Assembly (NCBI GenBank): GCA_027007025.1 | Contig: JALTFL010000001.1 | Span: forward strand, 248 to 64,247 | DNA length: 64,000 nucleotides | DNA from: Nanobdellati archaeon | GTDB lineage: Archaea > Nanobdellota > Nanobdellia > CSSed11-243R1 | Direction of reading: 5' to 3' | Part shown: positions 3,174 through 59,384 of the stretch, in pieces | How the letters are laid out: each line of letters starts with the position of its first letter | Position numbering within the stretch: position 1 is the stretch's first letter | Made by a program: the position numbers and the translations under genes | Notes under the pieces: model-generated | Seen by the model: only the letters and a program-made list of their open reading frames with translations | Databases searched by the model: none | Told to the model about the DNA's origin: nothing

Positions 3174-5915
3174 ATGACGTTCGAAAACCTGCATCCAAAA
3201 ATACGGGAATGGCTTGACAAACAGGGATACTTAGAAAGCACGCTACCCCAGAGGATGGCAATTCCAAATATAACAAAAGGAAAGGACATACTAATAATTG
3301 CTCCTACCGGACACGGGAAGACTCTCGCAGCAGTCCTACCGATATTTGACATGCTCCTCAAAGACAAAGACAAAAAGGGGATTCGGTTTCTTTACATAAC
3401 TCCGCTGAAAAGCCTAAACAGGGACATACTTGACAGGATAATAAAACTCGCGAGTTATATCGGACTGGATGTCGATTTGAGGCACGGAGACACCACAAAA
3501 AAAGAGAGAGCGCAGCAGCTTGCGGACCCCGCGGATGTGCTCATATCAACTCCCGAAACCCTCCAGGCAATTTTGATTGGGAAAAGATTCAGGGAACTTC
3601 TCAGGAACGTTGAGTATGTTGTCGTTGACGAGATTCATGAACTTTGCGAAAACAAAAGAGGAACACAGCTTTCGCTTGCCCTAGAAAGACTTGAGAGTCT
3701 GCGAGGCAAAAAATTCCAGAGGATAGGACTGTCCGCAACGGTGGGAGACCCAAAAAAAATCGCCAAGTTCCTGACAAGCAATGAGTGTGAGATAATAGAC
3801 GCCCGTGCCGAAAAGAAATACGAATTCAATGTTGACTATCCTAGGCCGTCAGCGGAAGACTTCGCTCTCGCGAGGGAGATAAGCACCACCCCCAACGTGG
3901 CGTACTGCCTGAGAAAAATTGATAGGATGGTTGAGGAAAGCAGGTCGACAATTGTCTTTGTAAACACAAGAGAGACGGCGGAAGGAATAGGCGCGAAATT
4001 CAGGATGTGGAAACCTGACGCAAAAATCGCTGTACATCATTCATCCCTATCTAAAGGTGTGCGGCTCGATGTAGAGCAGAAATTCAAGAACGGGGAACTC
4101 AAGGCGATAATCTCGACCTCCTCACTGGAGCTTGGAATTGATGTCGGAAGCGTTGATTTAGTCATTCAATATGGCTCGCCCCGCCAGGCGACAAAACTAA
4201 TACAGCGCGTGGGAAGAAGCGGGCACGGAGTCGGGAGGATTTCAAAGGGAGAAATAATATGCAACTCAATCGACGACTACCTTGAAGCCCTTGCTGTTGT
4301 CAAAAAAATCGAAGACGGCTGGCTCGAGGAGCCGACAATTCCAGAAAAGCCGTACGACGTTCTCTCGCACCAGATTGTCGGAATTTGCATGGATTTCCAA
4401 AACGAGAGCAGGACTCCAACAAGAGATGAAATTTACAAAATAGTAACAAAATCATACCCATACAGGAAATTGTCAAGGGAAGAATTGGATTCCATGATTG
4501 AATTAATGAAAGACATCCACCTTATAGGCGAAAAGGATGAAGGGCTGTTCAGGACGAGAAAGGGTATGATGTACTATTTCGAAAACCTTTCTATGATTCC
4601 CCACGAAAGAGACTACAAGGTATTCGCATCTGACTTGAACAAGGTAATTGGAATTCTCCACCAGGGATTCGTAGCTGAGCACATAAAGCACGGGGCACAG
4701 TTCATCATGAAAGGCGAAACCTGGCGCGTTGTTGATGTAGAGGAAGACAAAGTAAATGTGGTGTCAAGCGAGAGCGGAGAGGGAGCAGTCCCGAGCTGGG
4801 AAGGAGAATTGATACCAGTTCCCATGGAAATAGCAAAACTCGCAGGAGATTTGCGAGAAAAATTCGCCCTCGGGGAGCTGAAAAAACAAAAGGATGATTT
4901 CGTGATTTCCACAAGCAAGAGGATGTTCATAGAATCCTATGAAGATTACACGATTGTCCATTCCTGTTTCGGAAGCAAGGTTAACCAGACACTCTCAAAG
5001 GCAATTGGTGCAATGATAACATCCAAAATTGGCTCCTCAATCGGCGTTCAGAACGACGCTTATAGATTGCTTTTCAAGATGCCGTTGATAGTCGGGCAGG
5101 AGCAGATAGTCGAAGCAATGAACGAGCTTCAGCCAGAATGGATTGACGATATAATCAAAAAGTCTATGAAGAACACCTCGATGTTCCTTTATCGGTTTTA
5201 CCACGTGGCGAAAAGATTTGGCATAGTCGACAAAAACGCGGAGTTCTCACAGTATATCCTATCGCGACTGACGACTGTCTACCAAAACACATTCGTGTAT
5301 GAAGAGGCAATGAAGGAACTGCTTAGAGAAAAGCTCGACACGAAAAGCGCGAGGGACATTCTGGAAAAAATAAAAAGCGGAAAAATTGAAGTTATAAACT
5401 CCCCGAATTATGAGATTTCCCCTCTTGGAGTCGAAGGGCTGAGATACAGGACTTCACTCATGAAACCAAAGGGAAAGATAAAAGAAATTTATAATCTTGT
5501 CAAGGAAAGGCTGAAAAACAGGAAGTTCTGGTTCGGATGCCTCTCGTGCGGGAATACAATCGGCGTTTATTCCGTGAAAAATGTTCCAGAGAATTTGAAG
5601 TGTCCAAAATGCGGAGCTAAGCTAATAGGGTTTGTGCCATATAAGGAAAGTGAAATAGCCAAGAAGATACTCAGAAAATATACCAACAAGCAGAAGTTAA
5701 ACGAGGAGGAAGAAAAATTCATAAAAAAATTCAGCGAAACCGCCGAGATGTTCATCAATTATGGGAAGTCTGCGGTTTTCGTGCTTGCGGGCTACGGAAT
5801 AGGGCCGAAAGTCGGTAGAAGAATTCTCAATAGGTATCATAAAAATGAAGATGACTTGGTTAAAGACATAATAAAAGAAGAAAAAAGATTCATAGAAACG
5901 AGAATTTTCTGGTAA
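3174..5915 (+). CDS. Lhr-like SF2 ATP-dependent helicase with C-terminal zinc ribbon
   Basis: Walker A TGHGKT, DEIHEL box, SAT motif, C-terminal CxxC..CxxC; 913 aa. Confidence 0.75.
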   Translation: MTFENLHPKIREWLDKQGYLESTLPQRMAIPNITKGKDILIIAPTGHGKTLAAVLPIFDMLLKDKDKKGIRFLYITPLKSLNRDILDRIIKLASYIGLDVDLRHGDTTKKERAQQLADPADVLISTPETLQAILIGKRFRELLRNVEYVVVDEIHELCENKRGTQLSLALERLESLRGKKFQRIGLSATVGDPKKIAKFLTSNECEIIDARAEKKYEFNVDYPRPSAEDFALAREISTTPNVAYCLRKIDRMVEESRSTIVFVNTRETAEGIGAKFRMWKPDAKIAVHHSSLSKGVRLDVEQKFKNGELKAIISTSSLELGIDVGSVDLVIQYGSPRQATKLIQRVGRSGHGVGRISKGEIICNSIDDYLEALAVVKKIEDGWLEEPTIPEKPYDVLSHQIVGICMDFQNESRTPTRDEIYKIVTKSYPYRKLSREELDSMIELMKDIHLIGEKDEGLFRTRKGMMYYFENLSMIPHERDYKVFASDLNKVIGILHQGFVAEHIKHGAQFIMKGETWRVVDVEEDKVNVVSSESGEGAVPSWEGELIPVPMEIAKLAGDLREKFALGELKKQKDDFVISTSKRMFIESYEDYTIVHSCFGSKVNQTLSKAIGAMITSKIGSSIGVQNDAYRLLFKMPLIVGQEQIVEAMNELQPEWIDDIIKKSMKNTSMFLYRFYHVAKRFGIVDKNAEFSQYILSRLTTVYQNTFVYEEAMKELLREKLDTKSARDILEKIKSGKIEVINSPNYEISPLGVEGLRYRTSLMKPKGKIKEIYNLVKERLKNRKFWFGCLSCGNTIGVYSVKNVPENLKCPKCGAKLIGFVPYKESEIAKKILRKYTNKQKLNEEEEKFIKKFSETAEMFINYGKSAVFVLAGYGIGPKVGRRILNRYHKNEDDLVKDIIKEEKRFIETRIFW

Positions 5916-5920
5916 CCCCC

Positions 5921-6030
5921 TTTTATGAAAGCACGTACGGAAAAATATAAGTTTTTTCTCTTAGTGCAGTTTCTCTTTTCTAAAGAGAAAGTGCTTTCTT
6001 TAGTGCAGCTTTCTTCTTAAGAAAGGTACT
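5921..6030. repeat. cluster of degenerate CTTTCTY..RAGAAAG hairpins plus GCACGTACGGAAAAA motif (terminator-like, same family as tRNA-intron core)
   Basis: between convergent helicase and TyrRS 3' ends; repeated tttctcttttctaaagagaaag / tttcttcttaagaaagg hairpins and T6 tract. Confidence 0.5.
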
Positions 6031-7045
6031 AGGAAAGGAAAGCGTCGCCAAGAGCTTCGAGTTCATCCTTGTGCTCCTCAAAATACTTTCTTATTTTGGA
6101 GAAGATGTTCACGAGCTCGTTTGTCAGCGCCGCCTTGATGTCCAGCGGGTGGAGTTCCTTATCAATGAACTTTCTCTCCAAGTCGTCATAAAACTCGAAT
6201 TTTATGTCGCCACCGAATTTTTCAGGGCGCTTTATCTCGACACTTCCCTTAAGCGGGAAGACAACATATTTGTAAAGTTGTAATATTGGATTGTCCTTCA
6301 CCTCACCTGCCGGACAATACGCTTTCTTGATTTTCTCACGAATTGCTTCCTCGGAATCATGAACTTTTATGCTCGTTTCGGGAATTGACGCGCTCATCTT
6401 TACGCCGGGACCTTTCAGGCTAACCATCAGCGGCATCATAACTTCCACCCTTGATTTGTATCCCACTTTTGGAAGGTACTCCCTTGCATACGCAAGAATG
6501 TGTCGCTGGTCTATGCCGCCAAGCTGTATGTCAACTTTTAGGTATTCCTCGTCGAGCGCCTGCATCACAGGGTAAATTAATTCAGAAACCTTTGGGTTTT
6601 TCATCCTAGTGACTTCTGACGCCGCCCTTGTCGCCCTCTTGACTGTCGTGAAAGATGAAAGCTTCAGGATGTCTGCCTGGTATTCCCTTGTGAGCTCGAA
6701 GTCAGAGCCAAAGACAAATTCCGGCTTTGTTTTCCACGGAATCGCTAGCTCTAGGCATTTTTTCACATACTCCCTTCTCTTTTGAATTTCGTCCCATGGG
6801 GTTTTCAAGTCATCAAGCGCGGCGTGTATGTCGGCAATCATTATTTTCGTCTTTATTCCTGCCTTGCTGAAATCGAAAATCTTGCCCATTGTTGCTAGAT
6901 AACCCATATGAACTGGTCCTGTTGGGGCAATTCCCCAATACGCAGTAGGATTGCTTTTTGTCTTCAGCAGTTCCCTCAGTTCATCTTCAGTGAGAATTTC
7001 CTTTGTGTTCTGCTTCGCCAATTCGAATTTATCCTTCCATTCCAT
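6029..7045 (-). CDS. tyrS: tyrosyl-tRNA synthetase (archaeal type)
   Basis: near-collinear with M. jannaschii TyrRS incl. KMSAS and C-terminal KRPEKFGGD; HIGH region reads HMGY. Confidence 0.9.
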   Translation of the reverse strand: MEWKDKFELAKQNTKEILTEDELRELLKTKSNPTAYWGIAPTGPVHMGYLATMGKIFDFSKAGIKTKIMIADIHAALDDLKTPWDEIQKRREYVKKCLELAIPWKTKPEFVFGSDFELTREYQADILKLSSFTTVKRATRAASEVTRMKNPKVSELIYPVMQALDEEYLKVDIQLGGIDQRHILAYAREYLPKVGYKSRVEVMMPLMVSLKGPGVKMSASIPETSIKVHDSEEAIREKIKKAYCPAGEVKDNPILQLYKYVVFPLKGSVEIKRPEKFGGDIKFEFYDDLERKFIDKELHPLDIKAALTNELVNIFSKIRKYFEEHKDELEALGDAFLS

Positions 7046-25100: not shown

Positions 25101-25170
25101 AAAATCTCCCTCCGATAAGTTACCCCTATAGAACATTTGGAGGATTCATTCTTTTAAAAAGGTATTGGTA

Positions 25171-25211
25171 AAAAATTCTCTTTGGTACAGCTTTCTCCCT
25201 TTAAGAGAAAG
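25171..25211 (-). terminator. hairpin CTTTCTCTTAAAGGGAGAAAG plus U6 downstream of proS
   Basis: minus-strand hairpin followed by UUUUUU; same CTTTCT/AGAAAG hairpin family. Confidence 0.45.
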
Positions 25212-29260: not shown

Positions 29261-30367
29261 ATGTTAAAGCCAAACTACGACGACAGCATACTACAGATAA
29301 AAGATTTAGTTCTTAATTCAAAAAGGAAAAAGACATTGTTTATATTAATCGATGCTTTCGGGTATAAAATTCTTGAAAAAATAAAGAAAGATAAGTACGT
29401 GCGAAAAGTATTGAGAGAATCAAAGTTAAGAAAAATAAGCAGCGTGTTCCCAACGACAACGACGGCGGCAATAACATCCATATTCAGCGGCGAACCGCCC
29501 GGAAAGCATGGATTGTATGAATGGAAGGTATACTCCAGTAAAATAAAAATGGAATTTAATCCGCTGCCTTTTGAAGCTGTCGATGAAAAGATGCAAAAGA
29601 AATTTGAAAAGATTGCAACTCCATCATTAATCAAGCACAAAGATTTCATAAAAGATTTGCACAAAAAAAGAGTTTCTGTTTATCAAATATACCCTCACGA
29701 ACTTAAAGGGAGTTTATACAATTTTAACAAAGGGGATTTAGTTTTTTATAGAAATATCGTAGAGGCGGTTGTAAAAACAAAAAATGTAATAAAAAATGAA
29801 AAGAAAAAATCTTTCTTTTATTTATACCTCCCACACTACGATGAATCAGAGCATCTAAACGGTCCTTTTTCGGAAGAATCTATTGCATTAATAAAAGAAA
29901 TTTTTAGATTAATCTACAACGAATTGTTTAGCATAAAAGGAATAAAGATAATCATAACAGCAGACCATGGATGTGTGAGTATTAAAAAGGAAATAAAACT
30001 CGAAAGCAAAAAGTGGTTTTGGGAAAATGTTTGGCAGAATTTGAAATCTTGCTGTAGAAGAAAAATATTCCCCGTTGGTGGATCAAGAGATGTGTTCCTT
30101 CATGTGAAAGAAAACAAAATCAATTATGTTTTGACTGTATTAAAAAAACGACTTGAGAAATACGCCGAGATATATAAAACAAAAGACTTAATTGATAATG
30201 GATTTTTCGGGAAAAAAACGAGTAAACAATTTCTAAAAGATGTGGGCAATATTATAATACTACCAAAAGACAACATAGATATTACATTCTATGTCAAACA
30301 CAAATTCAACGGCGACCACGGCGGACTAAGCAAAGATGAGCTTTTTGTGCCGCTGATAATCCACTAA
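29261..30367 (+). CDS. alkaline-phosphatase-superfamily metalloenzyme (type I phosphodiesterase/nucleotide pyrophosphatase-like)
   Basis: LFILIDAFGY and FPTTTTAAITSIFSGEPPGKHG motifs typical of PF01663-like core. Confidence 0.55.
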   Translation: MLKPNYDDSILQIKDLVLNSKRKKTLFILIDAFGYKILEKIKKDKYVRKVLRESKLRKISSVFPTTTTAAITSIFSGEPPGKHGLYEWKVYSSKIKMEFNPLPFEAVDEKMQKKFEKIATPSLIKHKDFIKDLHKKRVSVYQIYPHELKGSLYNFNKGDLVFYRNIVEAVVKTKNVIKNEKKKSFFYLYLPHYDESEHLNGPFSEESIALIKEIFRLIYNELFSIKGIKIIITADHGCVSIKKEIKLESKKWFWENVWQNLKSCCRRKIFPVGGSRDVFLHVKENKINYVLTVLKKRLEKYAEIYKTKDLIDNGFFGKKTSKQFLKDVGNIIILPKDNIDITFYVKHKFNGDHGGLSKDELFVPLIIH

Positions 30368-30380
30368 AAGAAAAACTATT

Positions 30381-30412
30381 TCTTCCGTGCACGCTTCTTT
30401 CTAAGAAGGGTG
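30381..30412 (-). repeat. extragenic copy of conserved intron-core element, immediately 3' of tRNA, followed by U-tract
   Basis: minus strand reads CACCCTTCTTAGAAAGAAGCGTGCACGGAAGA then TTTTTCTTTT. Confidence 0.7.
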
Positions 30413-30414
30413 TA

Positions 30415-30574
30415 TGGCCCGGCGGAGATTTGAACTCCGGACCTCTGGTTTTCTGAGACCTGAGGTAACCCACAGGCGTCATATAAGACCAGCGCTCCAA
30501 CCAGGCTTCACCCAAACACCACTTCTTCCGTGCACGCTTCTTTTTAAGAAGGGTGCTTGTTAAGCTACCGGGCC
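30415..30574 (-). tRNA. tRNA with two introns; anticodon most likely UAU (Ile), assignment tentative
   Basis: acceptor GGCCCGG/CCGGGCC, D arm GCTT..GAGC, T arm CGGAG-TTCAAAT-CTCCG; D-loop intron 30508-30561 (54 nt, contains element) and anticodon-loop intron 30451-30481 (31 nt); mature 75 nt. Confidence 0.7.
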
Positions 30575-30624
30575 ATAAGGTAGGAAATGGAAATATTTAT
30601 TTAAAAAGTTATCTTTTGGTACAC

Positions 30625-31758
30625 ATGGCAAAATACTTATTTACTTCGGAATCTGTGACGGAAGGACACCCTGACAAATTGTGCGACCAAATTTCTGACG
30701 AAATACTCGATAAGCTGATAAAACAGGACAAAAACTCTAAAGTTGCCGTCGAAACTCTCGCGACGCGTGGACTCATACTCGTTGCCGGAGAAGTCAGCAC
30801 CAAGGGATATGTCGATGTTCAAGGAACTGCAAGAAAAGTTGTCCATGAAGTTGGGTATGACAATCCCGAATATGGATTTGATTTTGACTCAATCGCGGTC
30901 CTGACTGCACTGCATGAACAGTCGCCGGACATAGCAAGGGGCGTCATTAAGAAGGAGATGGGCGCCGGAGACCAGGGTTTAATGTTCGGTTATGCCACCA
31001 ACGAAACAAAGGAATTAATGCCTCTGCCAATAATAATGGCGCACAAAATTGCGATGCGCCTCGCGGAAGTCAGGAAGAAAAAAATACTTGACTGGGTGCG
31101 CCCAGACGGGAAGTCGCAGGTTACAGTCGAATACAAAAACGGAAAGCCTGTCAGGATAGACACAATTGTTGTTTCAACTCAGCATTCTCCAAAAGTCAAG
31201 AACAAAAAGATAAGAAAAGAAATAATTGACAAAGTAATTTCTCCTGTCGCGAAAGATTGGATTGATAAGAAAACAAAATTCTACATAAACCCCACTGGAA
31301 GATTTGTCATAGGCGGACCAGCAGCGGACACGGGACTCACTGGAAGAAAAATAATAGTTGATACATATGGTGGATTTGGCGCCCATGGTGGAGGATGCTT
31401 CTCCGGAAAGGACCCGTCAAAAGTTGACAGGAGCGGAAGTTACATGGCGAGGTATATAGCGAAAAATCTTGTCGCGGCAAAGCTTGCCGAAAAAGTCGAG
31501 GTGCAGATTGCCTATGCTATCGGCGTTTCAAAGCCTGTTTCAGTAATGGTAAATTCATTCAACACGGGAATAATCTCAGACGAAAAATTGATTGGAATCG
31601 TGAAAAAAGTTTTTGATATGCGCCCGGGAGCAATAATCAAACAACTGAAATTACAGAACCCTATTTACAGAAAAACCGCGGCGTATGGACACTTCGGCAG
31701 AAAAGGATTCCCGTGGGAGAAAACAGATAAAATAAACGAAGTAAGACATTACTTATGA
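30625..31758 (+). CDS. metK: S-adenosylmethionine synthetase, bacterial/eukaryotic type
   Basis: [33 protein letters not shown]-like motifs; start ATG 30625. Confidence 0.95.
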
Positions 31759-56438: not shown

Positions 56439-56707
56439 GGGCGAGCTAGGTGGGCCGTTGGGCGTGGCCTGTCAATCCCAAACCGTCCTTAGGGGAGCCG
56501 AAGCCAGCTTGAGGGTTGTCACATTTTGAGTAAGCTCATGCCGTATCTGCGAAGCCTCGCCCCAAGGGATGTGTTATTCTGTGAACCGTGCGAGGTCCGG
56601 AAGGAAGCAGCACTAAGCGGAGTAGCATATGCTCTTGGGATACGGGGTGGAGAAAAGGTATGGGGACTGCTCCTGGTGCGGCTTCTCGATGGCTGGTGTG
56701 CTCGCCT
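56439..56707 (+). ncRNA. signal recognition particle RNA (7S/SRP RNA)
   Basis: terminal helix GGGCGAGC/GCTCGCCT, universally conserved helix-8 GGTCCGGAAGGAAGCAGC, GC-rich, TATA-like TTTTTAA ~25 nt upstream. Confidence 0.85.
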
Positions 56708-56712
56708 ATTAA

Positions 56713-56747
56713 CTTCTTTTTCCGTGCACGCTTTTTCCAAAAGGGTG
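56713..56747 (-). repeat. inverted copy of conserved intron-core element directly 3' of SRP RNA, followed by T6
   Basis: plus strand cttctttttccgtgcacgctttttccaaaagggtg is reverse complement of CACCC..GCGTGCACGG..AAG consensus. Confidence 0.7.
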
Positions 56748-56794
56748 CTAAGAAAGCTGCACCAAAAGAAACACTTTTTTACATATGTGAAAAC

Positions 56795-57349
56795 TTATTT
56801 AAGAAATTCTTTTATTTTTTCAAGCAAAAATGGAAACTTTGTGTACCCCGCTTTTTCGTTGAAGTGCCCAGCGCCGTGAATTATTATTGGTTTCACATTA
56901 AGTTTTTCCGCGAGTTCATAAGTTTTTTCTAAAGGAATATAAGGGTCGTTGTCAGAACCGATTACAAAAATGTTCTTGCAGTTTTCTTTTATTTTCTTCC
57001 AGTCAAACGGCTTTTCGAAAAAGGTTGAATTGATTTTATCGACTTCGGCGAAACCTAGTGCTCCGAGGAAACCCGCTATTAAAAAAGTAGCTTTGGTTTT
57101 ATACTTCTCTAAAAGATGCAATACAAATGAGGGTCCAATGCTGTGAGCAACAAAAATTGTATTCTCGTCAACATACTTTTCATAATCTTTGAAAACATTT
57201 AGCCAATTTTCTAAGGATTGCCCTTCTGGTGTCGGGAATTTTGGCACAAAGACTTTGCAACCCACCTTCTCGAGTTCTTTCTTCAGCCAAGGAAACCAAT
57301 TTTCCTGCGGATGCCCAAATGCGCCGTGTATGATGAAAACATTTGTCAT
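56795..57349 (-). CDS. alpha/beta-fold serine hydrolase (YdeN/RBBP9-like esterase)
   Basis: 184 aa, nucleophile elbow AHSIGP, HGAGH near C-terminus. Confidence 0.6.
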   Translation of the reverse strand: MTNVFIIHGAFGHPQENWFPWLKKELEKVGCKVFVPKFPTPEGQSLENWLNVFKDYEKYVDENTIFVAHSIGPSFVLHLLEKYKTKATFLIAGFLGALGFAEVDKINSTFFEKPFDWKKIKENCKNIFVIGSDNDPYIPLEKTYELAEKLNVKPIIIHGAGHFNEKAGYTKFPFLLEKIKEFLK

Positions 57350-57477: not shown

Positions 57478-57725
57478 GCCGGGGTCGCCTAGCACCACCC
57501 TTTTCTTAAAAGAAAAGCGTGGACGGAAAAGAAGAGGGTGATGGGTTATCTGGTTATGGCGCTGGCCTGCTAGCACCCTTTCTTAGAAAGAAAGCGTGCA
57601 CGGAAAGAAATTTCCGTGGGTCGTAGTCAGCCAGTTTCCTTCGGGATCCGTGAGTTCGAAAGAGCCTTTCTCTTGCGAAGAGAAACCCTCGGGAAAGAGA
57701 AGCTCCGATTTTCTCACCCCCGGCG
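57478..57725 (+). tRNA. class II tRNA with three introns; anticodon most likely GCU (Ser)
   Basis: acceptor GCCGGGG/CCCCGGC, anticodon stem CTGGC/GCCAG loop CTGCTAG, 15-nt variable arm, T arm GTGAG-TTCGAAA-CTCAC; introns 57493-57549 (D-loop), ~57574-57629 (anticodon loop), 57662-57712 (T-loop); mature 84 nt; TATA-like AAATATAA ~30 nt upstream. Confidence 0.7.
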
Positions 57726-59134: not shown

Positions 59135-59345
59135 GGGCCCGTGGCCTAGTGGCTATGGCGTCCGCTTGACGAAACCCTTTCTTCCAAGAAAGCATTTACG
59201 GAAAGAAGGGTGTTCAAAATGCGGGAGATCCCCGGTTCGAAAGCAGCCTTTCTTTAGGAAAGAAAGCCTGCAGGGAAAGAAATTTCTTTTCCCTCAAGGC
59301 TTTTCTTTTTAAGAAAAGGCTTGCACGAAAGTCCGGGCGGGCCCA
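59135..59345 (+). tRNA. tRNA-Val (GAC) with two introns
   Basis: exons 59135-59172, 59221-59242, 59333-59345 give 73-nt cloverleaf; acceptor GGGCCCG/CGGGCCC, anticodon stem TCCGC/GCGGG loop TTGACGA, T arm CCCGG-TTCGAAA-CCGGG; introns 48 nt (anticodon loop) and 90 nt (T-loop). Confidence 0.8.
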
Positions 59346-59384
59346 TTTCTAAAGTTTTAAATATGTAACTCATTTTAATCTTAT

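Follow-up and report, generated by a model that had tools for sequence, protein, structure and literature searches.

A structured intron core also occurs as a solo copy in the 3' trailer of an archaeal tRNA-Ile gene and probably belongs to a duplicatively spreading family

A short structured element lies just downstream of the tRNA-Ile(UAU) gene on the minus strand of a 64,000-nucleotide (nt) stretch of DNA from a Nanobdellati archaeon (contig JALTFL010000001.1; the whole stretch is called the window). Its sequence recurs in the D-loop intron of the same gene and in introns of tRNA and rRNA genes of other archaeal phyla. We consider it probable that this trailer element is a solo copy of a structured module that spreads by duplication, and that it is co-transcribed with the tRNA, left unspliced and removed by RNase Z, rather than acting as a processing signal. 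A preliminary description of the window had reported near-identical copies in the D-loop intron and 3' of the same tRNA, and both were recovered, one as the exact 32-mer CACCCTTCTTAGAAAGAAGCGTGCACGGAAGA and the other with one mismatch. The 32-mer had no match in dinucleotide-preserving shuffles. Its extent was right as far as it went, and the repeat alignment showed that the similarity reaches 42 nt at 90% identity (30371-30412 versus 30514-30555). The tRNA and its trailer are base-for-base identical in a second public record (GCA_015522785.1, L104).

Comparison of the two copies showed four differences, one in the hairpin loop and three in the segment that closes the helix of the intron copy. 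This segment reads GTGGTG in the intron, where it pairs with CAAG-CACC, and ATAGTT in the trailer. The minimum-free-energy fold of the trailer copy is the hairpin CAC-C-CUUCUU-AGA-AAGAAG-C-GUG followed by CACGGAAGA. RNAfold predicts a long helix bringing the splice sites together for the intron copy, and only this local hairpin plus a second hairpin for the trailer copy (-14 kcal/mol for the two-hairpin fold, z = -3.0). In a scan for bulge-helix-bulge (BHB) motifs, the D-loop intron has a central helix of 3/4, an inner helix of 8 and an outer helix of 0, which is a relaxed motif, and the anticodon intron has a central helix of 3/4, an inner helix of 3 and an outer helix of 5. The best solution for a cut after the discriminator (central 3/4, flank 2, outer 0) is not above background; the scan was self-written and too permissive, with many background matches, and supports only the weak conclusion that no motif is conspicuous at the 3' end. 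The D-loop sibling behaves as a BHB intron should: the spliced tRNA is canonical, the junction fold is BHB-like and the L003 allele is intron-less. The trailer copy does not interrupt a mature RNA, the tRNA being complete without it, and forms neither two 3-nt bulges around a 4-bp helix nor the relaxed version, its closing strand being degenerate. Since the G-rich closing strand is missing, no convincing BHB is predicted to span the tRNA 3' end, and the trailer copy is probably not a splicing substrate.

In-silico removal of 30560..30507 and 30481..30451 gives a 75-nt tRNA-Ile(TAT) that is accepted by ARAGORN. ARAGORN, with intron mode on or off, reports no tRNA in the window, and it misses this gene because two introns interrupt it. 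At gathering thresholds Rfam reports only the signal recognition particle (SRP) RNA in the whole window, and tRNA-Ile surfaces in E-value mode only; among the curated families, tRNA alone is found in 30340-30600 at E < 0.1, and SRP RNA and tRNA alone in the whole window. The element does not follow the discriminator immediately, as had been thought, for the bases TA (30414-30413) intervene. Likewise, the oligo-U tract noted behind it is present, as the T5CT4 sequence TTTTTCTTTT at 30375-30366, but five bases, AATAG, come first. The stop codon of a convergent open reading frame (ORF; 29261..30367) overlaps this tract, so the element takes up nearly all of the 47-nt spacer. Given the TATA-like box at about -26, the transcript would start just before the tRNA.

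The locus was compared among relatives (MetK identities of 87% for L003/L004, 86% for L099, 83% for L100/L101 and 79% for L102/L103). L001 shows 98.2-98.6% DNA identity to the window over 21 kb, and its D-loop and anticodon introns are identical base for base. The trailer element is kept in L001 with three changes in about 40 nt, against an expectation of about 0.7: CA is lost from the foot, which breaks the foot helix, the loop has a G/A change and GTGCAC has become GTGTAC. A 172-nt insertion in L001 (9639-9810) falls at T-loop position 53/54, equivalent to window 30434/30435. Its parts are a T-arm intron, the 3' exon for a second time (TTCAAATCTCCGCCGGGCCA) and a spacer of about 105 nt; a trailer starting TTTATCTTA as in L099 and GC-rich hairpins are also present in the insertion. 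The original 3' exon and the trailer element are displaced downstream of the insertion. The T-arm intron is present in L001 and L003 and not in the window. L003/L004 have no D-loop intron, and their core sits in the T-arm intron; their trailer carries a related CTGCAC-type hairpin, TTTTCTT-AGG-AAGAAAA-GCTGCACC-AAAAGAAA-T7. In L102/L103 the trailer has only a plain hairpin, CTTCT-ATT-AGAAG-T5. In L100 (950-1297) and L101 (1-310) the tRNA-Ile 3' exon (positions 54-73) and its trailer are duplicated in tandem, the two copies being separated by the pyrimidine/purine hairpin TTTTCTT-TCT-AAGAAAA. In L099 the 3' exon is identical, and behind it come TTTATCTTATAA and the neighbouring gene's stop codon, with no hairpin in the trailer. 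Across these sequences, the trailer element is conserved in near-identical strains, variable at moderate distance and apparently dispensable for the tRNA.

The module consists of a 3-bp foot (CAC/GUG), a C·C mismatch, a hairpin with a pyrimidine and a purine arm, a single-stranded N-ACGGAA and a second purine run (R2). The hairpin covaries: pairing is seen in 95.9% of the cells, and both sides change in 39 cells compared with 10.8 in shuffles (0/500), while all slid registers are much worse. In a model alignment of 150 sequences the foot also covaries (C-G 116/114, A-U 30/33), the Cs of the internal mismatch are invariant (149/150 and 150/150) and the N-ACGGAA after the foot is nearly so. R2 begins at the GG of ACGGAA and is the parallel-register complement of the 5' pyrimidine arm, that is, the mirror of the 3' arm. 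Among 58 comparable copies, 52 have matching run-length patterns, and a permutation control gave 7.35 versus 5.72 +/- 0.11. Copies with asymmetric stems follow the mirror rule in 32 of 38 cases and the antiparallel rule in none (for example CCUUUUCUCUU versus GGAAAAGAGAA). Mirrored R2 runs can be read in the window at 30381-30389 and 57525-57538. Watson-Crick pairing cannot explain either the mirror repeat or the invariant C·C mismatch. A purine-motif triplex, with the third strand antiparallel to the purine arm and G·G-C and A·A-U/T triples, could possibly explain the mirror. In DNA, purine-motif triplexes are an established form, and all-RNA versions are disfavoured; the molecule that folds in this way may be either DNA or RNA. 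Three other readings of these parts were discarded. No register gives the tandem G·A pairs of a kink-turn (an L7Ae site), the flanks being AG-CAC ... GUG-CAC-GGAA by inspection. A palindrome or kissing loop at CGUGCACG does not fit, as the central bases vary (GUGUAC, GUGGAC, GUUUAC, GUUGAC, AUUUAC) without self-complementarity. R2 is a direct repeat of the 3' arm, which would allow an alternative Watson-Crick helix, in mirror-symmetric stems only, and the asymmetric stems show the mirror.

A strict pattern of the module was scanned against one genome per species of GTDB, with contexts assigned from the flanks by eye. It occurs in 93 stretches, almost all from archaeal metagenome-assembled genomes (MAGs) of six or more lineages, including Nanoarchaeota, Woesearchaeota, Aenigmatarchaeota, Altiarchaeota, Iainarchaeota, Undinarchaeota, a few Thermoplasmata MAGs and unclassified archaea. 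A covariance model derived from 41 copies found 169 copies in 98 loci (702 kb). The 101 strict matches comprise about 68 in sense-strand tRNA introns (D-loop, anticodon loop, variable arm and T-loop), 3 in rRNA introns, 1 antisense copy in a tRNA intron (L038), about 26 solo copies and 3 chance matches in bacterial-labelled contigs (L012, L059, L082). Sense-strand tRNA introns thus hold about 70% of the 98 archaeal matches. Two further bacterial-labelled loci are not chance matches, since L083 contains archaeal rRNA according to Rfam and the flanks of L050 are, by eye, an intron-bearing tRNA. The presumed rRNA introns lie, as Rfam confirmed, in 5S (L026, 5719-5895), 16S (L042, 913-2653) and 23S (L083, 1772-4837) genes; a core was also seen in a 16S leader (L071, 5540-5577). 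With a stringent detector that required an intact T-arm, a 7-bp acceptor and a discriminator, cores were found 0-5 nt past complete tRNAs in five MAGs (the window, L017, L057, L045 and L014), at distances of 0, 2, 2, 3 and 5 nt. Further trailer copies were recognized by eye in L001 and L053. Trailer copies appear far above the share of intergenic DNA taken up by tRNA trailers, a share that is itself a rough estimate. The proposal that one element serves as an intron core and also sits outside exons therefore holds in other phyla as well. A literature search with the motif string returned only unrelated primers and keyword searches gave no description of the element; the family is apparently undescribed. 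The strict pattern had no match in the viral contigs of IMG/VR, and a viral origin was rejected on that ground.

Several features point to duplicative spread. Hairpins are more similar within genomes than between them (0.405 versus 0.231; 0/2000 permutations), and each genome has its own loop or stem subfamily at non-homologous sites, both in introns and solo, as exemplified by CAYUWT (solo in L016 and L075, T-loop in L062). In AUK188 (L045), an anticodon intron has as its core the exact 37-nt variant of the trailer copy of the window. Similar introns recur in different tRNAs and at different positions, namely the D-loop, anticodon loop, variable arm and T-loop, and the D-loop and T-arm introns are polymorphic among close relatives. 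The module is short, multicopy and hairpin-forming, as are miniature inverted-repeat transposable elements (MITEs) and repetitive extragenic palindromic (REP) sequences. These gains and losses and the genome-specific subfamilies fit the earlier suggestion that the element may be mobile. Rearrangement scars cluster at the elements, with orphan 3' exons in L001 and L100 and tandem arrays in L016 and L035. Filled and empty D-loop sites were compared and revealed no duplicated stretch of 2 nt or longer. At the T-arm site there is a CCGGA(G/A) direct repeat, which is also demanded by the BHB central helix, and solo copies lack the GGGTG arm. A model in which target-site duplication creates the BHB was rejected; it fits the T-arm sites (CCGGAG...CCGGAA) and not the D-loop or anticodon sites. 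Further arrangements were seen beside such elements. L006 (~100-260) and L044 (~2700-2900) contain truncated tRNA 5' fragments (positions 1 to about 34) that terminate in a solo core plus an A-rich run; an intact tRNA sharing their 5' sequence lies just downstream. These fragments may be relics or halves resembling split tRNAs. In L035 (~2080-2165) a D-loop intron has a tandem triplication of AGAATGCACGGAAAGAAAA that includes part of the conserved tail.

With a reporting cut-off of E < 0.01, the covariance model finds 10 copies in the window (Table 1). Three are in the introns of tRNA-Ile and tRNA-Ser(GCU), three in those of tRNA-Val(GAC), and four are solo: one in the tRNA-Ile trailer, one abutting the SRP RNA and two between convergent ORFs. 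The core occupies two of the three tRNA-Ser(GCU) introns, and the third holds a diverged AGCC...GCUC variant. Neither ARAGORN nor Rfam detects this tRNA-Ser. Pyrimidine/purine hairpins number 17 in the window compared with 1.8 in shuffles, an enrichment of about 9-fold, and several of them lie past stop codons with T5-T7 behind them. A second hairpin subfamily, ...AAG-CTG(C/T)AC-C/T with a purine run and T5-T7, was noted after protein-coding ORFs (25170-25211 and 5950-6032, both minus strand) and is also an intron core in other MAGs, for example in the flanks of L028, L058 and L079. After the SRP RNA, a plus-strand CTGCACC-type hairpin with T6 (56708-56790) overlaps the minus-strand solo core, and one pyrimidine/purine stem may serve both convergent transcripts there.

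Table 1. Features of the tRNA-Ile locus and other copies of the core in the window.
Feature	Position	Strand	Basis or remark
TATA-like box TTTTTAAATAAATATTT, ~26 nt upstream of tRNA position 1	30591..30607	-	Sequence, kept in relatives; putative promoter
tRNA-Ile(UAU) gene, two introns	30574..30415	-	Rfam tRNA match, 45.8 bits; discriminator A at 30415
D-loop intron, 54 nt, relaxed BHB, holds sibling core	30507..30560	-	Splice points recreate the intron-less D-loop of L003; RNAfold long helix
Sibling core in D-loop intron, one mismatch to trailer copy	30555..30524	-	Covariance-model match 30522-30559, 52.6 bits
Anticodon-loop intron, 31 nt, canonical 37/38 position, without core	30451..30481	-	In-silico splicing, BHB scan
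Spacer UA (2 nt) between discriminator and element	30413..30414	-	Direct reading of sequence
Trailer element, solo core copy	30412..30381	-	Exact 32-mer match
Trailer element, covariance-model match	30379-30416	-	49.5 bits, E = 4e-13
Repeat extension AATAGTTTTT in trailer copy	30371..30380	-	Counterpart of helix-closing strand GTGGTGTTT in intron copy, G to A or T
Second predicted hairpin, purine run GGAAGAAA paired with U tract	30362..30389	-	Includes presumed terminator TTTTTCTTTT
Convergent ORF, phosphodiesterase/PglZ-like	29261..30367	+	Pfam families on L001 ortholog
Degenerate solo cores between convergent ORFs	5912-5946; 5995-6032	+; -	Covariance model, 17.3 and 17.5 bits, E about 0.003
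Archaeal SRP RNA	56439-56707	+	Rfam
Solo core between minus-strand ORF (56795..57349) and SRP RNA 3' end	56716..56751	-	Covariance model, 47.6 bits
tRNA-Ser(GCU), three introns	57478-57722	+	D-loop ~57491-57543, anticodon ~57571-57626, T-loop ~57660-57710
Core in D-loop intron of tRNA-Ser(GCU)	57492..57532	+	Covariance model, 51.1 bits; in-silico splicing
Core in anticodon intron of tRNA-Ser(GCU)	57570..57609	+	Covariance model, 58 bits; in-silico splicing
tRNA-Val(GAC), anticodon intron and ~89-nt T-loop intron	59135-59346	+	Sequence, in-silico splicing; undetected by standard tools
Core variant AAC...GCAUUUACGG in anticodon intron of tRNA-Val(GAC)	59169..59207	+	Covariance model, 43.7 bits
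Inverted core pair forming T-loop intron of tRNA-Val	59240-59281; 59285-59326	+; -	Covariance model, 41.6 and 27.8 bits

The window S-adenosylmethionine synthetase gene (MetK, 30625-31758, plus strand) is of the bacterial/eukaryal type (PF00438/PF02772/PF02773) and not the classical archaeal one, a type also seen in many DPANN and Thaumarchaeota matches. Its product is closest to proteins of 'Nanoarchaeota archaeon' MAGs (DPANN), and exact-protein look-ups of MetK and of P0001 gave no match. A UAU anticodon in an Ile tRNA is unusual for archaea. The syntenic tRNA next to MetK (in the window, L001, L003, L099, L100 and L102) carries the anticodon UAU in some genomes and GAU in others, both for Ile; the swap is confined to the anticodon arm, and the acceptor, D and T arms do not differ.

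The explanation that we favour, a spreading module with a solo copy in the trailer, would work as follows. In most copies the module is the core of a tRNA or rRNA intron, in which a site-specific 3' strand pairs back with the CACCC and the upstream exon, giving the splicing endonuclease a relaxed BHB. The module in the trailer lacks this closing strand, and it would be transcribed with tRNA-Ile from the TATA-like box (30607-30591) through the TTTTTCTTTT tract. It would fold as a hairpin by itself, undergo no splicing and be discarded once RNase Z cuts after A73. Its arrival would be due to a DNA-level duplicative process, either copying or recombination between module copies, the same one that seeds and removes introns elsewhere. 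It would be dispensable for the tRNA and serve at most as a terminator-adjacent hairpin. Several points weigh against this picture. What is shown comprises the sequence, the copy number, the covariation of the hairpin, the missing closing strand, the turnover in relatives and the distribution over phyla, and we infer transcription through the element, its removal by RNase Z and the mode of spread. The analysis found neither target-site duplications nor terminal inverted repeats, and no transposase either, with no search aimed at transposases having been made; no copy was found in the viral contigs of IMG/VR. Most relatives retain some pyrimidine/purine hairpin in the trailer, which hints at a function. 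That C·C and ACGGAA are invariant from phylum to phylum, and that the purine run is mirrored, points to selection on the structure or to a partner that binds it, since such features would be lost in a purely passive relic. The trailer copy still has them and may therefore do something.

A first alternative is that the element forms the transcript 3' end, with the hairpin and the oligo-U tract as a terminator or an exonuclease-blocking hairpin, perhaps also for the convergent gene, and with the intron cores derived from such hairpins. We regard this as unlikely, although it has local support. The second of the two trailer hairpins includes the U tract, L003, L100 and L102 all carry a pyrimidine/purine hairpin in their trailers, and the 9-fold enrichment of such hairpins in the window includes several with T5-T7 after stop codons. 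Moreover, a pyrimidine-arm/purine-arm hairpin keeps its polarity when reverse-complemented, so both convergent transcripts would see one. An oligo-T stretch of at least five on the transcribed strand, the signature of an archaeal intrinsic terminator, stands just downstream of tRNA-Ile (TTTTTCTTTT), and we infer a terminator role for this tract. However, oligo-T terminates archaeal transcription and suffices alone, and the tRNA-Ser of the window runs straight into T7 with no hairpin. Only 12 of 160 copies in the family have T5 or more within 35 nt, several of these being T-loop introns that adjoin the tRNA's own terminator, and termination as a property of the whole family was rejected on this count. 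The trailer copies of L014, L017 and L057, from other phyla, are not followed by T runs, the L099 trailer has no hairpin and the L001 copy has lost its foot helix. The module also lies inside tRNA genes, where termination would be harmful. A scan for bacterial-type terminators found nothing. The terminator module suggested in the preliminary description is thus tenable at this locus and not for the family.

The same description had proposed a splicing-endonuclease or RNase Z signal. On such a reading, a BHB or bulge-helix-loop formed with the acceptor end, or a hairpin guiding RNase Z, would make the tRNA 3' end. Cores do start 0-5 nt past the discriminator in five MAGs, and in introns the CAC starts 1-2 nt past the 5' splice site. 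This reading is nevertheless very improbable. The closing strand is absent, and the fold and scan of the tRNA with its trailer, which had been named as the check, gave no BHB across the mature 3' end above a noisy background. The variable spacing between discriminator and element leaves no constant register for cleavage, and the CAC foot carries a deletion in L001. L099 provides the refuting case that had been named: its 3' exon is identical and the element is absent. A third alternative places the function in single-stranded or supercoiled DNA, as a structured recombination site in which the hairpin and a purine-motif third strand (H-DNA-like) promote recombination or are bound by a recombinase or HUH-type enzyme, the direct core repeat flanking the 3' part of the tRNA being the scar. 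The parallel R2 complement in 32 of 38 informative copies, with no antiparallel case, fits a G·G-C / A·A-T triplex. Rearrangements cluster at the elements (the L001 insertion, the L100 duplication, the L006/L044 fragments and the L016/L035 arrays), and antisense copies exist (L038; window 59285-59326). Yet the predominance of sense-oriented strict matches in transcribed RNA (about 70%) argues for selection at the RNA level, the arms span a mere 6-11 nt, no enzyme could be linked to the module and the triplex rests on the symmetry of the sequence. We judge a recombination site improbable; it overlaps with the favoured explanation of a spreading module, is not exclusive of it and offers the best home for the mirror repeat.

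Known systems show parts of this picture. As summarised in PMC4090602, Thermoproteales tRNA genes underwent large-scale transposition of BHB introns (Fujishima et al. 2010), which implies recent intron gain at the DNA level by an unknown mechanism. These introns resemble the present family in being repeated, transposing BHB-intron sequences. The present family, in contrast, occurs in DPANN, Altiarchaeota and some Thermoplasmata, has a 12-14 nt motif and a hairpin conserved across phyla and not just in one order, has a mirrored purine run, and has copies in 5S, 16S and 23S rRNA introns as well as solo copies, including those in tRNA trailers. For Caldiarchaeum subterraneum, a model has tRNA genes disrupted by the integration or recombination of a mobile element (Sugahara et al. 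2012, PMC3293823). The population heterogeneity and the intron gain with orphan tRNA fragments beside an intact gene are like those in L001, L100, L006 and L044, whereas the element there is 1.8 kb long and encodes a recombinase and the present pieces are 40-170 nt with no recombinase in view. The 5' halves of split tRNAs in Nanoarchaeum equitans (PMC4090602) likewise have intron-like sequence, with only half a BHB, right after a tRNA piece. The present tRNA-Ile, unlike these, is complete, so nothing is left for trans-splicing and no partner is necessary.

Resemblances also exist outside the archaeal introns. Bacterial REP sequences and the related REPINs are imperfect hairpins of 35-45 nt with a conserved mismatch and flanks, many copies and genome-specific subfamilies. 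Compared by description only, the present family matches them in hairpin type, copy number, enrichment between convergent genes and occasional inverted doublets (window 59240-59326). It differs in its archaeal host, in that no RAYT (REP-associated tyrosine transposase) or Y1 transposase was identified, none having been searched for, and in the placement of most copies within structural RNA genes, where splicing removes them and so makes them tolerable. Eukaryotic introners and transposon-derived introns (PMC11282704) are likewise repeated elements whose insertion makes removable introns, with bursts of gain, but splicing here is by EndA at a BHB and not by the spliceosome, and no transposon hallmarks were found. 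The T5CT4 tract downstream of tRNA-Ile is like the archaeal oligo-T terminators of general knowledge; the hairpin, however, is not part of that signal, and most members of the family have no T tract. The family is therefore of a known kind, that of repeated, transposing BHB-intron sequences, from which it differs in the cross-phylum motif and fold, the occupancy of rRNA introns, the solo copies outside genes and the mirrored third strand. With its mobility and its function both at the stage of proposals, we would not call it categorically new.

A broader proposal is attractive but rather doubtful at present. The family could be a cross-phylum archaeal module resembling introners and REPs, an approximately 40-nt hairpin with a C·C mismatch, an ACGGAA tail and a mirrored third strand that copies itself at the DNA level into harmless positions. 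It would become or nucleate a BHB intron in tRNA and rRNA genes, stay solo in trailers and intergenic spacers and be a main driver of the extreme fragmentation of DPANN tRNA genes. PMC5829648 reports heavily disrupted tRNA genes and incomplete tRNA sets in DPANN genomes and describes no shared core. The mechanism of archaeal tRNA intron gain is unknown, and the tRNA sets of these lineages are not fully predictable (PMC4090602, PMC5829648). A core that occurs both in introns and solo offers a concrete sequence lead to whatever causes intron gain, and near-identical strains show both filled and empty sites. Some tRNAs overlooked by ARAGORN and Rfam, three of them in the window, are recovered with the covariance model, which could improve the annotation of tRNA and rRNA genes in DPANN MAGs. 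If the three-way covariation of the 5' arm, the 3' arm and the mirrored purine run reflects a triplex, the module would represent an unusual natural nucleic-acid fold.

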